A stretch of 62,796 nucleotides of DNA, the filler included, from Sphacelaria rigidula (lineage: Eukaryota): assembly GCA_964200075.2 (NCBI GenBank). It is 5 parts of 5 records of this genome, joined end to end, with 100 filler letters (N's around TTAATTAATTAA, not from the genome) between each part and the next. Parts side by side here need not be neighbours in the genome. Positions count along the whole stretch, not along the records: positions 12,582 to 25,062 come from CAXNAA020003721.1; 4 more parts are not named here. The stretch is one strand, 5' to 3'. Below are positions 6,672 to 50,318 of this stretch, one piece after another. Position 1 is the stretch's first letter. Every line of letters starts with the position of its first letter. Made by a program: the position numbers and the translations under genes. The notes under the pieces were generated by a model. It ran no database searches and was not told where the DNA came from. It saw only the letters and a program-made list of their open reading frames with translations.

Positions 6672-7587
6672 TTAAGTTCACCCGACCTTCAAGAGTGGAA
6701 CGGACAAGAACGACCACGATCACAAGCACCAATACTGAGAGCAAAAGCATAAGATACGAGAGAGTACTCTGCCGAAGGTGAGAGCCACAAGTCGTGGGAC
6801 TCCGCCGTCTGTCTTTGGACTCATGCAGGGTCCCATTCCTGGCCGTGATTCTTATTACCAAGTGCCGAGTGTACAGGTCGAGGGTTCAAGGGCGTCGGTC
6901 AGGGTCACCCACCGACAGTGGAGGGGTGAAACAACCAGCGACTTCATAAGTTGAATTTTCTTACTTTCACGATTGCACCTGTCGGGTGATGAGCGGTATG
7001 GTGATGCCCACTGAAGTTTTGCGCCAGTGCGCGATGAGGCTGGTGTCGAGCTTGGCCGGACAGGTGTATGGCATGCCGGTCACGTGCCACTTACTCTTGC
7101 AACAGGTTTTGAACTATTTCACCCGCGTAAGAGATGCCCCGGCTACAAAATCCAGGGTAGTGCACCCCCCACCTCGTTTGGCAAAGGAAAGTAACAGCCG
7201 TTCGCCCGAAGAGAGCCCAACCCGCGTATCTGAAGAGTGCAACCCGCTCTTCCTTGTGGGCCGTTTTGGCTCCTGGATCTTCGGCATTACAACTCTCCAT
7301 CGCGTCCCTTTACGCTAACGCTGTCACACCAAAGCGGCGGAAAACGCGAATAAATCCCGCAGACAATCATCATACAAAATCAATCATAAAGGATAATGAA
7401 AGCAGTAGTGAGTGAGGGTAAGAGTACGGAGACTATAAACACGGACCAAGTCATCAGTAGGTACAAGATGATGTTGACGCCCCTGTGGTGCCTGCGTGTC
7501 TTTTCGCCGTCTTCCTCCTCCTCCTCTCCTTTCCCTCGAACAAACAAAAGGGCCGGCGGAGACTCTCACCTGCTACGCACAGGAGCC

Positions 7588-10053
7588 ATGCCTGCCTTGG
7601 ATGAACACGGCAAAGAGGTGCGCAAAAGATCGCCGGTGTTCTCCAGCTCCGGCTCCGAGAGTGAAATTGCAAGTTCGAGCGGAACGACTCCCGCGAGATC
7701 TCGCACGTCGTCCCGTAGCTCAACCCGCACAACCCCAGCAAGATCCCGCACAAACTCCCGTGGATCTTTGGGAATCGTTACACCAGGCCGATCGCGAGCG
7801 GCCCGAAATTCCGCCCGTGGTCTGCCGCCACAACGAGGCACCGCCAAAAACAGGGGTGGTATTGGCGGGGGTGGTCCTGTACCCCGCGATCATCGCCGCT
7901 CGCCGCCTTCCGAAAACAGTAGTGGAGATGGTAAAAGCTACCGGCGGACGAGTTCTGGTAGTTCAGGGGGGGGAAAGAGCAGCAGCGGTAGTCGCCGCGA
8001 TCCAGAAAAAGGCGGGAAAGGGGGGCGCACCGAGCATGCTCGGCGGGTGTCGGCGCCGCACTCCTCGTCCTCGTCCAAGAGTGCAGCGAATGGGGACGGA
8101 GAGGGCAGCGGGGTCTCAGGGGTGGTGGGTGAGCGTGATGAGGCGCAAAGCGCAGAAGGCATGATGAAGCACAAGAAAGGACTGTACAAGCAGAGCGCAA
8201 CCACCGCCAAGAGCATGCCGAACATGGCTGACATGCTCGTGGCGCCGCTCTCACGGCCGATCCCAACGGACTCCGTGGGTTATTGGTACAACAATGGACA
8301 GGACACAGAACAATCGTCGCGCTCGCGTTCACGATCTCAATCTGCGACCGACTGCGAAACTTCGCCGGTGCATGTGGCTGGCAGTGGACAGCCATCACGG
8401 AGCAGGCGGCAGAACGGAGCTCGACCGCTGTCGTATGTCAGCAAAACGACGGGGGCGCGTTCGAACACTCATCCGCACTCTCTTCAGCTAGACGAACATG
8501 CCAATGAGGGGATGCACGACGACGCGCGAGAGGCGCGGTTGCCGTCGCCGCCTCCTCCGACTGCGCTGGTTCGAGGAAGCAGTACCCCCGGCAAGCAGCC
8601 CAAGTCGGGGGCGAAGGTCGGAAGGCATCACCGGCGCAAATCGAGCGGGCAGCAGTCAGAGGAGGACTTGTTGGCGCTGTCGAGGTCGCACCGCGCCGCG
8701 GCGCGAGATCGGCTGAACGGAGCGTCTTCCGCTCTGCCGTCCACGTCTAAACGGTACCAGTCACCACCGCGTGAAAGTGACAAAGTGAAGGTCAGCGCCA
8801 GGCACACGAAATCCGGCGGCCGAGAACGGAAGTCCAAGCATGGCCGGCATTCCGCGACCAAAAGTAAGGAAAAAGACAGCAGGACGAGTGGCGACGATGG
8901 CTGGAAGTGGTCTGCAAACGACAATCCGGAGCCCACGAATATCTCAGGGCAGCCAGACGATTCTGCGACCGGGGGGCGTGCCAGAGAGGACGCAGGAAAC
9001 ACTGCTTCGCATAATGAGAGGAACCGTACGAAACTGCGCGGCGGTGTCAGTGCCGAGGGCAGCAACGGCGCTGGACCCCGGCAGGCCTCGGAGAAGACGA
9101 GAGTCGCCCCCAGGGAAAGCCTCGAGAACGACGTCGCTCTGAACGCGAGAAAAGCAGCGGCGAAGTGGCAACGTGTGGCGTCTATGGGGGAGGCCGGGGT
9201 AGCGGCGGACGCGTCGGCTGCTGTCACGAACGCCGCCGTAATCCGCACGCGACGGACGGCGGAAGCCAAGGCCGCCGAAGCGGCCGCCGCGCTGAAAGCC
9301 CGAGAAGAGGCCGATGCGAAGGTGGCCGAGGCGGCGGAGAAGCTGGCCGCGGCGAAAGCGGCGGCGATGGCCATGTCCCGAGCGTCTCCGATGGCGGCGA
9401 AGGCCGTGACTAAGGCGGCGGCCCCGGTCACCGCCACGGCCAAGCGCACCGAAGCAAAGGAGGAGGTGGGGGCGAGACCAGGAATAGTGGTACTGGACGA
9501 TAAGTCGGTGCCGGTGGTGAGGTCACAATTGCCCCTTGTGAAGAAGGCGGTGTCGAAGGCAACCGCACCGTCGGAACCGGGGCAGCCGTTGCCGATAACC
9601 GCAGCGGCAGCAGCAGCGACCACGACCGGTGACAGTGTTGTGGTCGAGGGTGACAATATAGCAGATGAGAGCGCCGCGGTGTCGGTACACTCTGATGTCC
9701 CGCATGTGTCGGCTTCGTCGCCACCGCGTCGAAAGAGCGGGGAGCGTGAGCTGGGATGGTCTGAGATGGCCGCGCTGGCGACAGCGCAGGCAAAGGCGGC
9801 TAGGGAAGCCCGCCAAGCGAACGATGAGCCACTTGGAAGGTCAGATTCGGCGGAAATGTTGTCGGATTCTAGCGGTGAGGAGGAGGACGATGTGGTAGAG
9901 GGGCAATATGTCGGGAATGGGCGAGGCGTGGAGCATGGAAGCGATAGCGGGTTTCACGAGAGGGAGGGTAGGGAGACGAGCGAGGAGATGTATCTTGTGC
10001 GGCATTCTGGAGACGAACAGCACGATCGACATCGAGCATTTATTATGCACGAG
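7588..10053 (+). CDS. Large exon of a disordered Ser/Arg/Ala-rich protein leading into an ankyrin-like repeat
   Basis: Part of ORF 7396-10248. Likely ATG at 7588 (GAGCCATG, just after a CACAG acceptor-like site). Contains an Ala-rich coiled segment. Donor GAG|GTAATT at 10053/10054, after which the ORF reads like intron. Confidence 0.75.
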
Positions 10054-10848
10054 GTAATTTGTTCTTTTATCGCGGCACTGCACCGCGGTGAAGAGTGTTG
10101 TGATATATTTTTCTGCGGTTTCGTCGCACAAGTTACCGTTGTAATGGGTACAAGACGATCGCCCAGCAGCTCTAGTGAAAAGGTTGGGTCAGGGGATGGC
10201 AATGCTTGGGATGGTGTGGATTGCATGACGGGTGCCAGTGCTGCGTAGTCCACCGTACCTAAGATGGCTGTATTCCAAGAAGAGAAGAAAACCCCACGAG
10301 CTACACGCTCGGACAAGATATCGCTCTTTCCCAAAAAAACAATGCCGGCCGTGCACTTACGTGCAGCTGTGCAAACTTTCAACGGCAGTGGGCACCGCAG
10401 CTCGTCAAGGCGGAGTCAACTTCGGACATATTCCGTCGTAGGAGGTGTTGGATACCACCCTGTCGTCTCTGACGGTAGTACAATAGCGGCGTCGGGTTCA
10501 TTCGATTTGTTTGCGCCCTTCATCCGTCCGAAAGATTTCATTTTGAAAGTATCCAGGGCAGGGCTTCATGTGATGGACGGGACACTTTTACCCATTTTGT
10601 GTGTCAGCTGTTGAATTAAACGCCCCACAGGTAGGGTAGACCCCGTGTACCGTGCACGATCGAAATAGTTTTGGTGATACATGAAACAGATTTCTCGTTT
10701 CTCTTCTTATTTTTTGCGTCGGCGGCGAGATTCACACGTGAAGAACCTACCACACAATGTCGCCCCCCTCCCCCACGGTGTGATGCTGCTTTTATTATTT
10801 TTATTCTGCTCGCGTGTCGTTTGATGCTGGTATGCTGCTATGCAACAG

Positions 10849-15500: not shown

Positions 15501-15589
15501 TTCTCAAGCGAGAACGTTGCACGCCGAAACAGTACTGCTAGAAACATACGATGAGGGATGTTGACCCTACCTTACGGTTGCAGACAGAC

Positions 15590-16190
15590 GGCACAATACT
15601 GCCTAGGATTGTCTGTATCGCACATTTTCCACATATCTCACGTTGGACGCATCATGTTTACTACAGCCGTTCGTACTGTTCTTGTGTGCAAATTGACACC
15701 TACAGCTTACTGCATGCGACAGCATAGACAGTATCCTGTAATCTCTGCGCTGGTAACTGTCCGTGCTGCAGCGTTTCGAGTGCACGGTCGATGCCAATAG
15801 ATCATCAACCCCTGACGATATCTCGCATGTGCCGGGATGACGAAGCAAAGTTTGGTCTAGTGCGTAAACGGCACTGGGGATGTTTGACATTGCTGTCAGG
15901 AGAGCCCCGCAGATGACGACGGGAACGAACATTTTCAGGGCTGGCGGGCGATGCTAGTCTCGCCGCGTCTCGAATGAAAAAACAAGACAAAGTGTAAGTC
16001 GATCTCGTCTTGAATTAGTTGAAAAGATACAGGCCAGGAGGGCCCATCTCAAAATATTTCTCTTGTTTTTTATTTTTTCCCCGCAAGCGTGTGAAACTGC
16101 TAACCGTAAGTAGCTATCTTGTATTTTTTCTTAGTTTTTTTGCAAAATACGGGGGGGAAATACGAACCGAAAGAAACGGCCTGAGGTCAG
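15590..16190 (+). repeat. Dispersed repeat family R1, copy 1
   Basis: Aligns by eye with 19205-19810 (direct) and 23740-24365 (inverted), e.g. GATCATCAACCCCTGACGA and GTCGATCTCGTC. A further partial inverted copy lies at ~16220-16700. Confidence 0.8.
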
Positions 16191-17303
16191 TATAATTCTC
16201 GATTTTTTTCCGGTGTGTCGGAGATGTGGAAAAATCTACATGTGCGGACGACGTGACGTCTGTGGACAACGTGCTAGGTGGTACTGTACTGTCTGCACTG
16301 CCGCATTCAATAGTGAGATGCACATGCCATGCTGCACCCAGCTGCGGCCGGAAATGATTTGGACAGCGTGCAGTGCAGACAATACATTGCTTGTCCTGCC
16401 GCATTCAATAGTACAGTAGGATGCAACTGTTAGTTTCCCAGTAGTGTACAACGGCTGCAATAACTATGATGAGGACGTGCAGCACAGACACAAGTGAGCA
16501 GTGCAGTACTGTCTTCACTGCCTCTTACGGCAGTATACATGCGCACATATCAGGTTGCACACGGTAATATACAACGGCTGCACTCAAATTGATGTGGAGG
16601 AGTGCAGTACAGACAGTGCTTGACACCAACACTGCCTGTACTGCCGCATACAGGACACAGCAGTATAGGATGAAAATGTTAGCTTGCACACAGTACGAGC
16701 TGGGTCGGCAGCGATCGGGGAAGGGCTACGTTTCATGTCTCCCTGCACCAACACGAGAAACTTGGCATGGCGAAGTCTTGAGGTCCCATTACCTTGCCTT
16801 GGCGGCCACACCCCCTCTGAACTTCGCTGACCACACTTTTGGTGCTTCTCCGCTTTTTTTCTATCCCCGCTCCGCTCCGAAATATATCTGGAACCGTGAG
16901 GTAGGGTCAACATCTCTCATCGTATGTTCCTGGCGGTATTTTTTCCTCATAATGTGTTGCAAAATACGTGGGGAAGATACGAAACGGAAGAAACGCCGTC
17001 AAACCGTTTCTTACGGGTTGTATCTTTCAATAGTATTTCGAAAAACATCACGAAAAATACCGCTAGGAAAATGAAACGGGCATTGTTCACCCTGTCCTAC
17101 GATTCCAGATATACTTTTGAGGAGGTGGGGGGGACAAAAGAGCGGGGAGGTACCTCAAGTACGGTCACTGGAATTCAAAAGGGTGTGCACACCAAGGCGA
17201 GGTGCAAATGCAGGCTTCTCCACGCCAAGCTGCTCATGGTGTAAGAAGACGCGAAACGTATGCCTCCCCCGCTGGTGGCCCAGCTCGTACTGTGTGTAAA
17301 CTG

Positions 17304-18986
17304 CACACCCTGGACAATACAACATGTAACATATATTGCCCGCTCAATATATCGAGGCGTCGGGTGGTCAATATATATTGGGCGAGCAATATGATGACAC
17401 GAGAGAGGGTCAATGTATATTGTGCCATCAATATATCAAGGCTCGCGACATGCAATATATATCGACCGAACAAAATATCACGACACGCGTCACCTCAGTA
17501 TATATTTGCCGAGTAATATGTTGGTGCGAGGAGGCACCAATGTAAATTTATCGAGTAACATACTGGCTGCCACCCGAGGTCAATATATATTGACGATTCA
17601 ATATATCGACACCCGAAGCGCCAATATGTATTGCCGCCCCAATATGTCGTGCGTCAATGCGTCCAATATATATTGGGTGGACAATACAAAAGGGAACCGA
17701 TGGTCGCAATGCATGTTGATGCAGCAAAATATATTGATTTTCAACACATAGATCGGAAAGTGTATTGGAATTAGTTTTGTGGGCAGTTCTTTGTTCGCGG
17801 GCGCCATTCAAAGACGTATTTTACATGCCAAAAATGCTCAATGTATTCCTCCGCAAGCGTGTTCAATATATATTGGCTGCACGATAGCTATCCGATCAGC
17901 GTGCGCAATATATATTGGAAAAACAATACTTCTGCATGGTTTGCGTTCAAAATATATTATGGTAACAATATGCTACGCACCGCCTCGACTCAATATATAT
18001 TGAATGTTTTATTCTCGGAGCAACTACATGTCCAATATGTCTTGGCATACATTCCTTCATGATCATGACACGAGCATTATATTTTGTTGCTTCAATATCT
18101 CCGAGGACATCTCAACACAATATATATTGAAATGACAATATTGGCGTTGGCTCCAATACAAAGTATTGGTATCATATTGGAACATATTATATTGTCCAGG
18201 GTATAAGCAACACAGCCCTGGTGACCACAGGGGTACCAAAAGGCACATATCGACCCGCGTTTTCTGTCGTCGTGATGTTTAGCCAAGATATTTACATTAC
18301 ATGCTGGAAAGGGGATGGGCGGCCCCGCACCGGTGACCAGATAGGTATCAGGAGGCATATATACCGGGTCGCCTCTTCTGTCACCATATTTTCTAACCAG
18401 TTATTATATATATATATCAAAATGATTCGACGACTTTCTGCAGTAATGCACGCGAAATTCTGCGGCTCCCTCTAAAGCTTTTCCCAATCTGCACGGGCTC
18501 CGGCATCCATCGCGTCTGGATCTCTCCTAGAGCGTACACGATACTTATAATATCTAAAATATATTGACCGGTCAAAATGTTTTCATCAATGCAACCCAAT
18601 ATATATATTGGTCGTGCAATATGTTGTTGCCCACGCTGCCCCAATATATATTGATGGGACAATATGTGTTCGACCCAATAGTACCAATATATATTATGCG
18701 GGCAATATGTGTGCAGTCCCTCGACATCAATTTATATTGGGCGCGCAATACATGTGCAGTCTAAGGGTACCAATATATATTACACCAGCAATATAAGAAT
18801 ATATATATATAATATATATATAAATTTAATTAATTAATTAATAAATAAATTGGATGGATGGATGGATGGATGGATGGTTGGTCATTTGATTTATTTATTT
18901 TTTTGAGCAAGGGAAAGACAATATCGCAAATTTCCAATGTGATCGACTAATATATATTGGAAACACATTGTATTGTCCAGGGTGTG
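17304..18986. mobile_element. 1683-bp non-autonomous hAT-type DNA transposon with internal 42-43-bp phased arrays
   Basis: Perfect 19-bp TIR CACACCCTGGACAATACAA (17304-17322 / 18968-18986). Perfect 8-bp TSD GTAAACTG (17296-17303 / 18987-18994). The homologous repeat at 24861 has a single target copy (empty site). Confidence 0.92.
18852..18876. repeat. (GGAT)n microsatellite after an AT-rich tract
   Basis: TGGATGGATGGATGGATGGATGGATGG. Confidence 0.9.
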
Positions 18987-18994
18987 GTAAACTG

Positions 18995-19990
18995 ATATAT
19001 CAATCGTATACTGCCGTAAACGGAGTACAGACAGTACTGTGCTGTCTAGTACTGTCTGTACTGCACTCCTCCACCTCAATTTTAGTGCAGCTGTTGTATA
19101 CGGCAGAAAAGGCGTGGTACTGTCTGCACTCTACGATGTTCAGGACAATTTCAGCAGCTGTTGGGTGCAACATGACATCTGCACCCTTCCGTTCAATGCA
19201 GCAATACAGACAGTACGATACTGCCCAGTGTTGTCTGAATTGCACATTTTCCACGTCTCTTACGTTGGCCGCATCATCTTGACTACAGCCGCTGTGTACT
19301 ACTGTTGAGTGCAAACTGACACCTATAACTCACTGCACGAGGCAGTGCAGGCAGTACTGTAATGTCTGCGCTGGGTACTGTCTGTACTGCAAGGTTTGAG
19401 AGCACGGCCGATGGCAACGGATCATCAACTCCTGACGACATCGCATGTGCGCCGGGATTGAGGAGAAACGTCTGGTCTAGTGTGTAAACGGTGGTGAGAA
19501 TGTTCGACATTGCTGTAAGGAGAGCCTCAAAGATTACAAAGGCTCAAGCATCTCCAGGGCTGGCGGGCGTTGCTTGTCTCGGTGCGTCGCGGATGAGAAA
19601 TACGAGAGAAAAACACGAGTCGATCTCGTCTCATATTTTTTCCGGAAATTACAAGCCAGGAGGGCTTATCTCGTGGAAATTCCCTCGTCCCGTTTTTTCC
19701 CTAGAATCTCGTAAAAATGCGAATCGTAAGGAGCGTTCATGTATTTTTTTCTCGTATCATACAAAATACGATGGGAAAACTCGAACGGCAAGAAACGGCC
19801 TCATCATTGTTTCCTGAAACCAATCAACAGTATATTATACCCCTACCATTACTCGACACTAGGAATACTCTGTGACTACACCGAATTACTAGGCTTGCGG
19901 TCATCACCCCTCAAGACACGCTGTTGCTTTCAGGACTTCGAGCTGAAATCGACGTCTGTTGGCGATGGGTATCGATGCAGAATGGCGTCA
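18995..19990 (+). repeat. Left arm of a ~1-kb inverted repeat (includes an R1 copy)
   Basis: Diverged reverse complement of 23550-24530, e.g. CAGGACTTCGAGCTGAAATCGACGTCTGTTGG / CCAACAGACGTCGATTTCAGCTCGAAGTCCTG. Confidence 0.85.
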
Positions 19991-30343: not shown

Positions 30344-30727
30344 CATACCGGGAGAAATCTCTGGGGGGCTCCGAACGTGCTCAAATATAACCATACTTTC
30401 ACAATTTCCCCGTGACTGCTGTATTCTGTGACGACCTCCGTTTCGTTTCAAAGACCGTCTCTGTTTTCTACTTTGATCATCTCCGTTTTTTTCTGTGATT
30501 ATCTCCATTTTTTTTGGTGACGATCTCCGTTTTTTTCTGTGACGATCTCCGTTGTATTGGTGACGATCTCCGTGCTCTTCTGCGGCGATCTCCGTTTTTT
30601 CTGTGGCGCGATCTCCGTGCTTTCCTGTGGTGCGATCTCCGTTCTTTTCTGTGACGATCTCCGTGCTTTTTTTTGGTGATCCCTGTCTCTCTCTTTTTTT
30701 TGTGGCGATCTCCGGGCTCCCGGTATG
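30344..30727. mobile_element. MITE-like element with 11-bp TIR and internal ~21-23-bp GATCTCCGT tandem units
   Basis: CATACCGGGAG (30344) / CTCCCGGTATG (30717-30727). About 10 degenerate CGATCTCCGT(T/G)-pyrimidine units at 30475-30715. No convincing TSD. Confidence 0.6.
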
Positions 30728-49134: not shown

Positions 49135-50218
49135 AGTTCTGCTCACAGAACGTCGAGGACGGGATGGTGGGTGCTTGACGCAAGGCGTGCTGCAGGGAGG
49201 GCTGCTTATAAGATAGCGTCGTTTGGGCTGCAGGGAAGCAGGAAGGCAGAGTTCTGCTCACAGCACGCCGACGACGGGATGGCGAATGTTCAACGCAAGG
49301 CGTGCTGCACGGAGGGCTGCATCACACTACCGTCGTTTGGCTCGGCCGGAAGCAGGATGGCAGAGTTCTGCTCACAGCACGCCGACGACGGGATGGTGAA
49401 CGTCGCCAGCAAGATGTGCCGCAGAGAGGGCTGCTCTAAGCGGGCATCTTTTGGATTGGCGGAAAGCAAGAAGGCGAAGTTCTGCTCACAGCACGCCGAC
49501 GACGGGATGGTTAATGTCAAGTACAAGACGTGCTGCAGAGAGGCTTGCTCCAAGCGGGCGTCTTTTGGGTTGGGAAGCGAGGGAGCGGAGTTCTGCTCAC
49601 AGCACGCCGAGGACGGAATGATTAATGTCCAGGACAAGACGTGCTGCAGGAAGGCGGAGTTCTGCTCACAGCACGCCGAGGACGGGATGATGAATGTTGG
49701 GAACAAGAAGTGCTGCAGAGAGGGTTGCTCCAAGCGGGTGTGGCTTGGGTTGGCGGGAAGCAGAAAGGTGGAGTTCTGCTCACAGCACGCCGAGGACGGG
49801 ATGGTGATTCTTGGGGATCAGACGTGCTGCAGGGGAGGTTGCTCCAAGGTACCGTCGTTTGGGTTGACGAGAAGCGAGGAGGCGGAGGTCTGCTCACAGG
49901 ATGCCGACGACGGGATGGTTAATGTCAAGAACAGGACTTGCTGCAGGGAGGGTTGCTTCACGCTACCGTCGTTTGGCTCGGCCGGAAGCAGGATGGCAAA
50001 GTTCTGCTCACAGCACGCCGACGACGGGATGGTGAACATCTTCAGCAAGATGTGCCGCAGAGAGGGCTGCTCTAAGCGGGCATCTTTTGGGTTGGAAGAA
50101 AGCAAGAAGGCGAAGTTCTGCTCACAGCACGCCGACGACGGGATGGTTAATGTCAAGTACAAGACGTGCTGCAGAGAGGCTTGCTCTAAGCGGGCGTCTT
50201 TTGGGTTGGCGGGAAGCG
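49135..50218 (+). CDS. EsV-1-7-type cysteine-rich repeat protein (~10 units of 38 aa), 3' truncated by the contig end
   Basis: Repeated C-x-x-E-G-C-x-K-x-x-S-F-G-x-x-G-S-x-x-A-E-F-C-S-Q-H-A-x-D-G-M-V-N-V with a 114-bp period. The first unit carries a TGA and a frameshift, so the ORF track start at 49171 is not the native start. Confidence 0.88.
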
Positions 50219-50318
50219 NNNNNNNNNNNNNNNNNNNNNNNNNNNNNNNNNNNNNNNNNNNNTTAATTAATTAANNNNNNNNNNNNNNNNNNNNNNNNNN
50301 NNNNNNNNNNNNNNNNNN
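50219..50318. other. Artificial contig-join linker
   Basis: N44-TTAATTAATTAA-N44. Confidence 0.98.

Follow-up and report, generated by a model that had tools for sequence, protein, structure and literature searches.

Subterminal repeats are standard in hAT transposons, and the available parts of two accounts (PMC4316626, PMC3355664) describe many short subterminal motifs in Ac/Ds, TCUP and yeast Rover1, which in Rover1 match the end of the terminal inverted repeat (TIR). These motifs lie in both orientations, and no fixed period is mentioned in the portions of the papers available to us. Regular subterminal repeats with short linkers and a target site duplication (TSD) of 8-9 bp occur in the MULE Muta1, but according to the accessible text (PMC5225508) this belongs to another superfamily, and its 12-bp repeats with 3-4-bp linkers lie inside long TIRs. 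For Hermes, the sections at hand (PMC10368747) report an 8-bp TSD, a short TIR, asymmetric ends and, by the TIR, a quasi-palindrome bound cooperatively by two BED domains with a third binding a nearby site. The DNA extends across the octamer ring as far as bp 47 (section 10), and the BED sites are 4 bp long, scattered, unaligned between the ends and dispensable beyond bp 50; internal BED sites are given as dispensable and auxiliary transposases as unlikely (section 16). The closest brown-algal element by description is hAT-2_Ec32 (hAT-2_ESi) of Ectocarpus, an hAT with CACAC-GTGTG termini and a TIR of ~20 bp (PMC12477816). It is autonomous, with 8945 bp and 92 copies, its TSD was taken as 8 bp by assumption (PMC12477816 Supplementary Material 3), and the published table, with which we compared by description only, mentions no subterminal lattice.

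The element described here lies in a window of 62,796 nucleotides of the brown alga Sphacelaria rigidula, the whole stretch of DNA that was analysed. Like Ac/Ds, TCUP and Rover1 it has many short subterminal motifs, and like Muta1 it has them in a regular arrangement, but its modules measure 42 bp and point the same way at either end. The full-text literature that we searched, which covers few subscription journals, holds no description of a fixed 42-bp lattice in hAT ends, and the family itself may already be catalogued in Repbase or Dfam. The main addition to the known subterminal repeats of hATs is a period of 42-43 bp that recurs across families.

The copy in the window is bounded by perfect 19-bp TIRs at 17304-17322 (plus strand, with a CAATA half-site inside; 24 bp in the family consensus) and 18968-18986 (minus strand), and by 8-bp TSD copies of GTAAACTG at 17296-17303 and 18987-18994 (both plus strand), the lengths of TIR and TSD being those that an earlier note on this sequence had stated. 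Between them, three plus-strand arrays share one orientation: array 1 with ten units (17327-17748; mean period in the consensus 42.3 bp), array 2 with seven (17864-18159; eight in the consensus, mean period 42.3 bp) and array 3 with six (18555-18794; seven in the consensus, period 43 bp). In each unit, two CAATAT half-sites form a 12-bp palindrome; a third half-site comes after six free bases, and 17-20 further free bases, more than the ~14-16 nt noted earlier, complete the unit. A unit was present at every one of the 23 positions previously listed; 22 of these score 13-36 bits with the family matrix and the one at 18033 is decayed (-4.8), while no match of at least 15 bits falls outside them anywhere in the window. 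The spacing of units within arrays is 41-44 bp. A lattice over most of the element had been proposed; the units make up about 58% of its length, and TRF detects just two short pieces of the arrays. Three features go beyond the earlier description, namely a decayed internal copy of the right TIR (18181-18204, minus strand), which is also found in the family consensus and is probably an earlier end, a simple-repeat insertion of 128 bp with TA, TGGA and AT-rich runs (18795-18922, approximate boundaries) that is present in this copy alone (1/23), and the loss of two units relative to the 25-unit consensus. A lone core palindrome (18948-18959, plus strand) adjoins the right TIR. The internal non-repetitive stretch with a (TA)n tract (18205-18554) was rejected as a transposase remnant, being without similarity to the fetched transposase loci. 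The window copy is an inert fossil and has no sign of host function. The surrounding host repeat (17004-19801), of about 1.1-1.3 kb, is older, dispersed and unclassified, and serves as context only; over 15585-17000 and 17004-19801 an unclassified dispersed repeat, rich in AGTAC motifs, forms a cluster of three copies that lie in both orientations.

This element is one copy of a non-autonomous hAT family of 1.65 kb with more than 100 copies. A DNA search of its own genome returned 827 first-look candidates, 40 of which were scored, and the genome holds 242 exact matches to the 19-mer TIR and 1512 to its 16-mer start. Full-length copies were recovered at 23 of the 30 best loci; their identity to the consensus, which is 1648 bp long and has 25 units (10+8+7), is 93-97%. 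TSDs of 8 bp with at most one mismatch flank 19 of these 23, and mismatch averages 0.15 for a length of 8 bp vs 0.63-0.78 for other lengths. Empty sites support insertion at the window locus, as the target site is present once and without the element in all 11 listed paralogs of the host repeat. Loose ends were seen in contigs of three sequencing runs, which stop at the right TIR followed by the AT-rich consensus AAATATTT; joints skipping the element were absent among those listed from contigs of four sequencing runs, and the runs listed as containing the sequence include none of RNA. The target of Hermes, nTnnnnAn in the available text (PMC10368747), differs from this AT-rich AAATATTT. Because the latter resembles the unit core, copies probably inserted into copies, and one fetched family copy does sit within another. 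Such self-insertion may be the source of the internal right end at 18181-18204 and of the three-array layout.

No autonomous partner was found among 20 fetched TIR loci, all of which belong to the same non-autonomous family or its derivatives. Two divergent spacers, picked by eye from the first 100 of 205 pattern matches, were considered as traces of such a partner and rejected, since they derive from old diverged relatives. Three loci (L142, L143, L144; G000 C91, C636, C872) carry short MITEs (140-170 bp) whose TIR begins identically and which have an 8-bp TSD but no 42-bp array, so the lattice is dispensable for some elements with that TIR. In or beside another family copy (L044:1452-3549) lies a reverse-transcriptase frame that we take to be Copia-like from its motifs.

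There is little doubt that the element is a non-autonomous cut-and-paste hAT of the CACAC-ended brown-algal kind. The 8-bp TSD, the empty sites and a TIR start in common with a family encoding an hAT transposase all agree with the assignment made earlier. CACAC-GTGTG are the termini of hAT-2_Ec32 in Ectocarpus, and the ends of KDZ, P and MuDR elements differ (PMC12477816 Supplementary Material 3). KDZ was rejected, as its brown-algal termini are of GGGG- or CAGTA-type with complex ends (PMC12477816 Supplementary Material 3); a search with PF18758 for a KDZ transposase gave no match and was uninformative. A P element, with CAAGG termini and a 7-bp TSD in brown algae (PMC12477816), was likewise rejected against the CACAC ends and 8-bp TSD found here.

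The family encoding a transposase was reached by following the 139 PF05699 matches in the genome. Its right end has the same first 16 bases as the TIR of the element at nine loci with different flanks, and one whole copy of 6.8 kb (L130, after which we name the family) has the TIR at both ends and a TSD with one mismatch. The L130 gene is decayed and split by introns, with BED-like, TDAG, CxxH, RW and ERDF motifs; the first catalytic DxWT was not seen in it, and the copies of the family are decayed. Its own pieces gave no match to Pfam hAT profiles and one to Hermes at only E~1, PDB searches with single pieces gave nothing significant, and word-index protein searches with two pieces of the L130 clade found nothing among longer proteins. 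PF05699 was matched at E<=0.01 by 8 of the 15 L130 homologues tested, three of the eight above the cut-off, and an alignment profile of the L130 clade with other local hATs matches Hermes at 5e-12. At both ends of the family, CRATATACATGG-N7-CAATAG recurs in one orientation with a period of 42-43 bp, and autocorrelation at lags of 42, 43 and 85 is 0.39-0.46 vs 0.34 for the best of 200 shuffles. Most of its units have N7 where the element has N6, and similarity is limited to the first ~36 bp, which makes it a sister family. Judged by sequence, it would be a transposase-bearing hAT sister with a near-identical lattice and at most a candidate partner. The element moved in trans, and the cognate transposase of its family was not found in the fragmented assembly. 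A local transposase has relatives named from Discosporangium and Ectocarpus sp. 6, which together with EsV-1-7 repeats in the window point to a brown-algal genome.

At least four hAT clades in this genome carry a lattice of 42-43 bp, each with its own motif. A second element in the window (43290 to about 44690), of the CACGGTTCGGAC TIR family, repeats a different motif in 17 units with a period of exactly 42 bp. Its motif also occurs behind hAT genes at L105 and L115, with the CACGGTTCGGAC TIR beyond the latter, and an 8-bp TSD was found in two of five full copies of this TIR family. The element itself is a non-autonomous one of hAT type with a decayed right TIR, and a first look at the genome gave 1822 candidates for it. 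Behind hAT genes at L075, L079 and L109 lies a third motif, TGAGCTA, and at L114 a fourth. In the C-terminal region the four clades share 28-55% identity, and they occupy separate branches of a tree built from 132 columns, whose deep forks are weak. The 115 loci with hAT C-terminal matches comprise 76 distinct ones, 66 of them with at least 1400 bp downstream. A lattice was present downstream in 25 of these 66 (24 at 40-43 bp) and absent from 41, vs 1 of 38 control flanks; 16 of the 24 belong to the L130 clade, which was deliberately enriched in the sample, and the lattices at L086, L090 and L139 could belong to unrelated neighbours. Paralogs of the host repeat have a period of about 60-62 bp, so 42 bp is not general to all repeats here. 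A tandem array at 30424-30670 of the window has units of 21-22 bp (43 also by TRF), about half the lattice period. Several hATs with transposase (L075:7157, L079:4813, L109:744, L128, L129, L135) also have a second, decayed TIR lying inward of the true end, and hAT ends seem to grow by capture of another end. Two copies of one hAT (L071, L077) have several kb of flank in common past the apparent TIR and were thus duplicated within a larger unit.

The lattice invites comparison with a CRISPR-like repeat-spacer array storing foreign DNA, because within one copy the cores are constant and the spacers different. The spacers were called unique in the earlier note, and within one copy they are; among copies, however, they are fixed. 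The alignment of genome copies proposed there gave, unit for unit, spacers identical in position and kind in all 23 aligned copies. In 8 of the 23, losses of 38-43 or 86 bp have removed one or two entire units, five of the eight sharing the same two losses, and new units are absent from all 23. The spacers thus do not vary through acquisition, and their fixity together with losses of whole units only means that the array is not CRISPR-like, the resemblance having rightly been described as superficial. The spacers are also just 6 and 18-19 nt long, and the element has no Rfam match and no ORF of at least 150 aa. A search for cas genes in 12 plus-strand ORFs of the 29 listed for the window matched only EsV-1-7 repeats. 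The core pattern in viral contigs produced 36 matches, every one single and none in an array, and a single 28-bp core match was found among 147 external viral or metagenome loci, on which grounds a viral origin was rejected. That the arrays store foreign DNA is therefore hardly conceivable. An origin as an old minisatellite, with cores homogenised by gene conversion or slippage, has more to recommend it, as the units are homologous duplicates (adjacent spacers of array 3 are 48% alike), whole units have been lost between cores, and the cores are not conserved after insertion. Likeness between units is nevertheless 0.89 in the cores and 0.29-0.30 in the spacers (0.25-0.26 in shuffles), and conservation per column is 0.72-1.0 in the core and mostly 0.3-0.5 in the spacer (Mann-Whitney p=2e-8). 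Conservation is thus not uniform across the unit, and the earlier view that this is no ordinary decaying satellite holds. Divergence among copies is 4.3% in cores and 3.9% in spacers (p=0.12), and as cores mutate as fast as spacers, decay after insertion is neutral and the lattice is not conserved by the host. Variants found in many copies are those inherited through transposition, and the cores are depleted of them: those common to at least 6 of 54 copies number 13 in cores and 50 in spacers, singletons 351 and 470 (p=0.0005). This was one of three thresholds tried (p=0.025 and 0.033 at three and four copies), and the test is not significant for transitions alone or transversions alone. With a spacer indel rate of 16 per 525 substitutions and assuming star-shaped ancestry, the probability under neutral indels that none of 22 spacings departs by more than 1 bp is 5e-5 for the spacer identity observed, or 0.018 if spacers were still 50% alike. 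Since inherited variants avoid the cores and neutral drift would not have left unit length so constant, selection acted during transposition and not for the host. Against the minisatellite origin also stand the recurrence of the period with unrelated motifs and the indels after insertion, of which cores have 69 and spacers 16, yet cores are uniform in the consensus. This neutral origin is already disfavoured and we consider it improbable. It seems, then, that selection on the element itself has kept both motif and period, which upholds the selection in the selected protein-binding lattice proposed earlier, and the sequence pattern suggests binding by a protein.

The best explanation, and as a whole a likely one, is a lattice for the transposase. 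The CAATAT half-site would be the site for its BED zinc finger, and each unit, palindrome plus third half-site, would serve as the pad on which three BED domains of a single transposase oligomer land. The period would be set by the size of this oligomer, perhaps with some help from having all pads face the same side of the helix. Where transposase is scarce, the arrays would gather it and pass it on to the TIR; they may have grown by duplication of units, probably also by insertion of copies into copies, and would shrink via recombination between cores. As all arrays point one way, the two ends are asymmetric. Each unit shares the three-site composition of the Hermes site by the TIR, the consensus TIR with the first unit ends at bp 47, and by analogy 42-43 bp would be close to the roughly 45 bp spanning the Hermes octamer ring. 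Unlike the scattered Hermes sites, the module of this family recurs 25 times with a constant period. The dispensable internal sites of Hermes and the short MITEs that have this TIR but no arrays speak against the model. A further proposal, which we regard as tentative, is that brown-algal hAT ends are composed of ~42-bp modules taking one ring each, so that the period would be a ruler of the oligomer, maintained among clades of 28-55% identity, the motif would co-evolve with the BED domain and several rings might occupy each end in a row, in place of the single ring of the Hermes model.

Selection through transposition leaves the binder unnamed, and a host or accessory DNA-binding protein might read the lattice instead of the transposase, for example by keeping ends open or escaping silencing. 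Hermes ends, as far as the accessible text goes (PMC10368747), need an unidentified internal feature other than BED sites, which would suit such a protein. However, the motif changes between transposase clades and the half-site recurs within the TIR, and both indicate a binder encoded by the element; a host binder is thus unlikely, if somewhat less so than a DNA shape read by no sequence-specific binder at all, in which phased AT runs would bend DNA or position nucleosomes. An alternating AT run as core, recurring about every four turns in arrays 1 and 2, fits a role of shape, but other families hold the period with GC-rich motifs (TGAGCTA, ACTCGAG), conservation of the third half-site extends to its individual bases, and array 3 drifts out of phase, which leaves this reading with a small probability. 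The earlier note had proposed a phased lattice of four helical turns, and this fits arrays 1 and 2, which imply 10.6 bp per turn, better than array 3, which, with 10.75, drifts 0.57 turn across its six units of 43 bp at 10.5 bp per turn. By arithmetic, roughly a quarter of all periods lie within 1 bp of a multiple of 10.5, and helical phasing is only loosely supported. A constraint by footprint size accounts for the period equally well. Returning to the transposase lattice, the need of hATs for hundreds of subterminal bases and the Hermes ring are only partly explained so far, and several transposase clades with a clean, readable motif each and a common period form a natural test set. Both a change in BED specificity and the question whether the period is the footprint of the oligomer thereby become testable. 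The motifs also name candidate binding sites in advance for brown-algal transposon tools.

Elsewhere in the window, long open frames of 952 and 563 aa (7390-10248 and 83-1774) gave no Pfam match, and an ORF at 49135-50274 encodes nine EsV-1-7 cysteine-rich repeats with a period of 114 bp.
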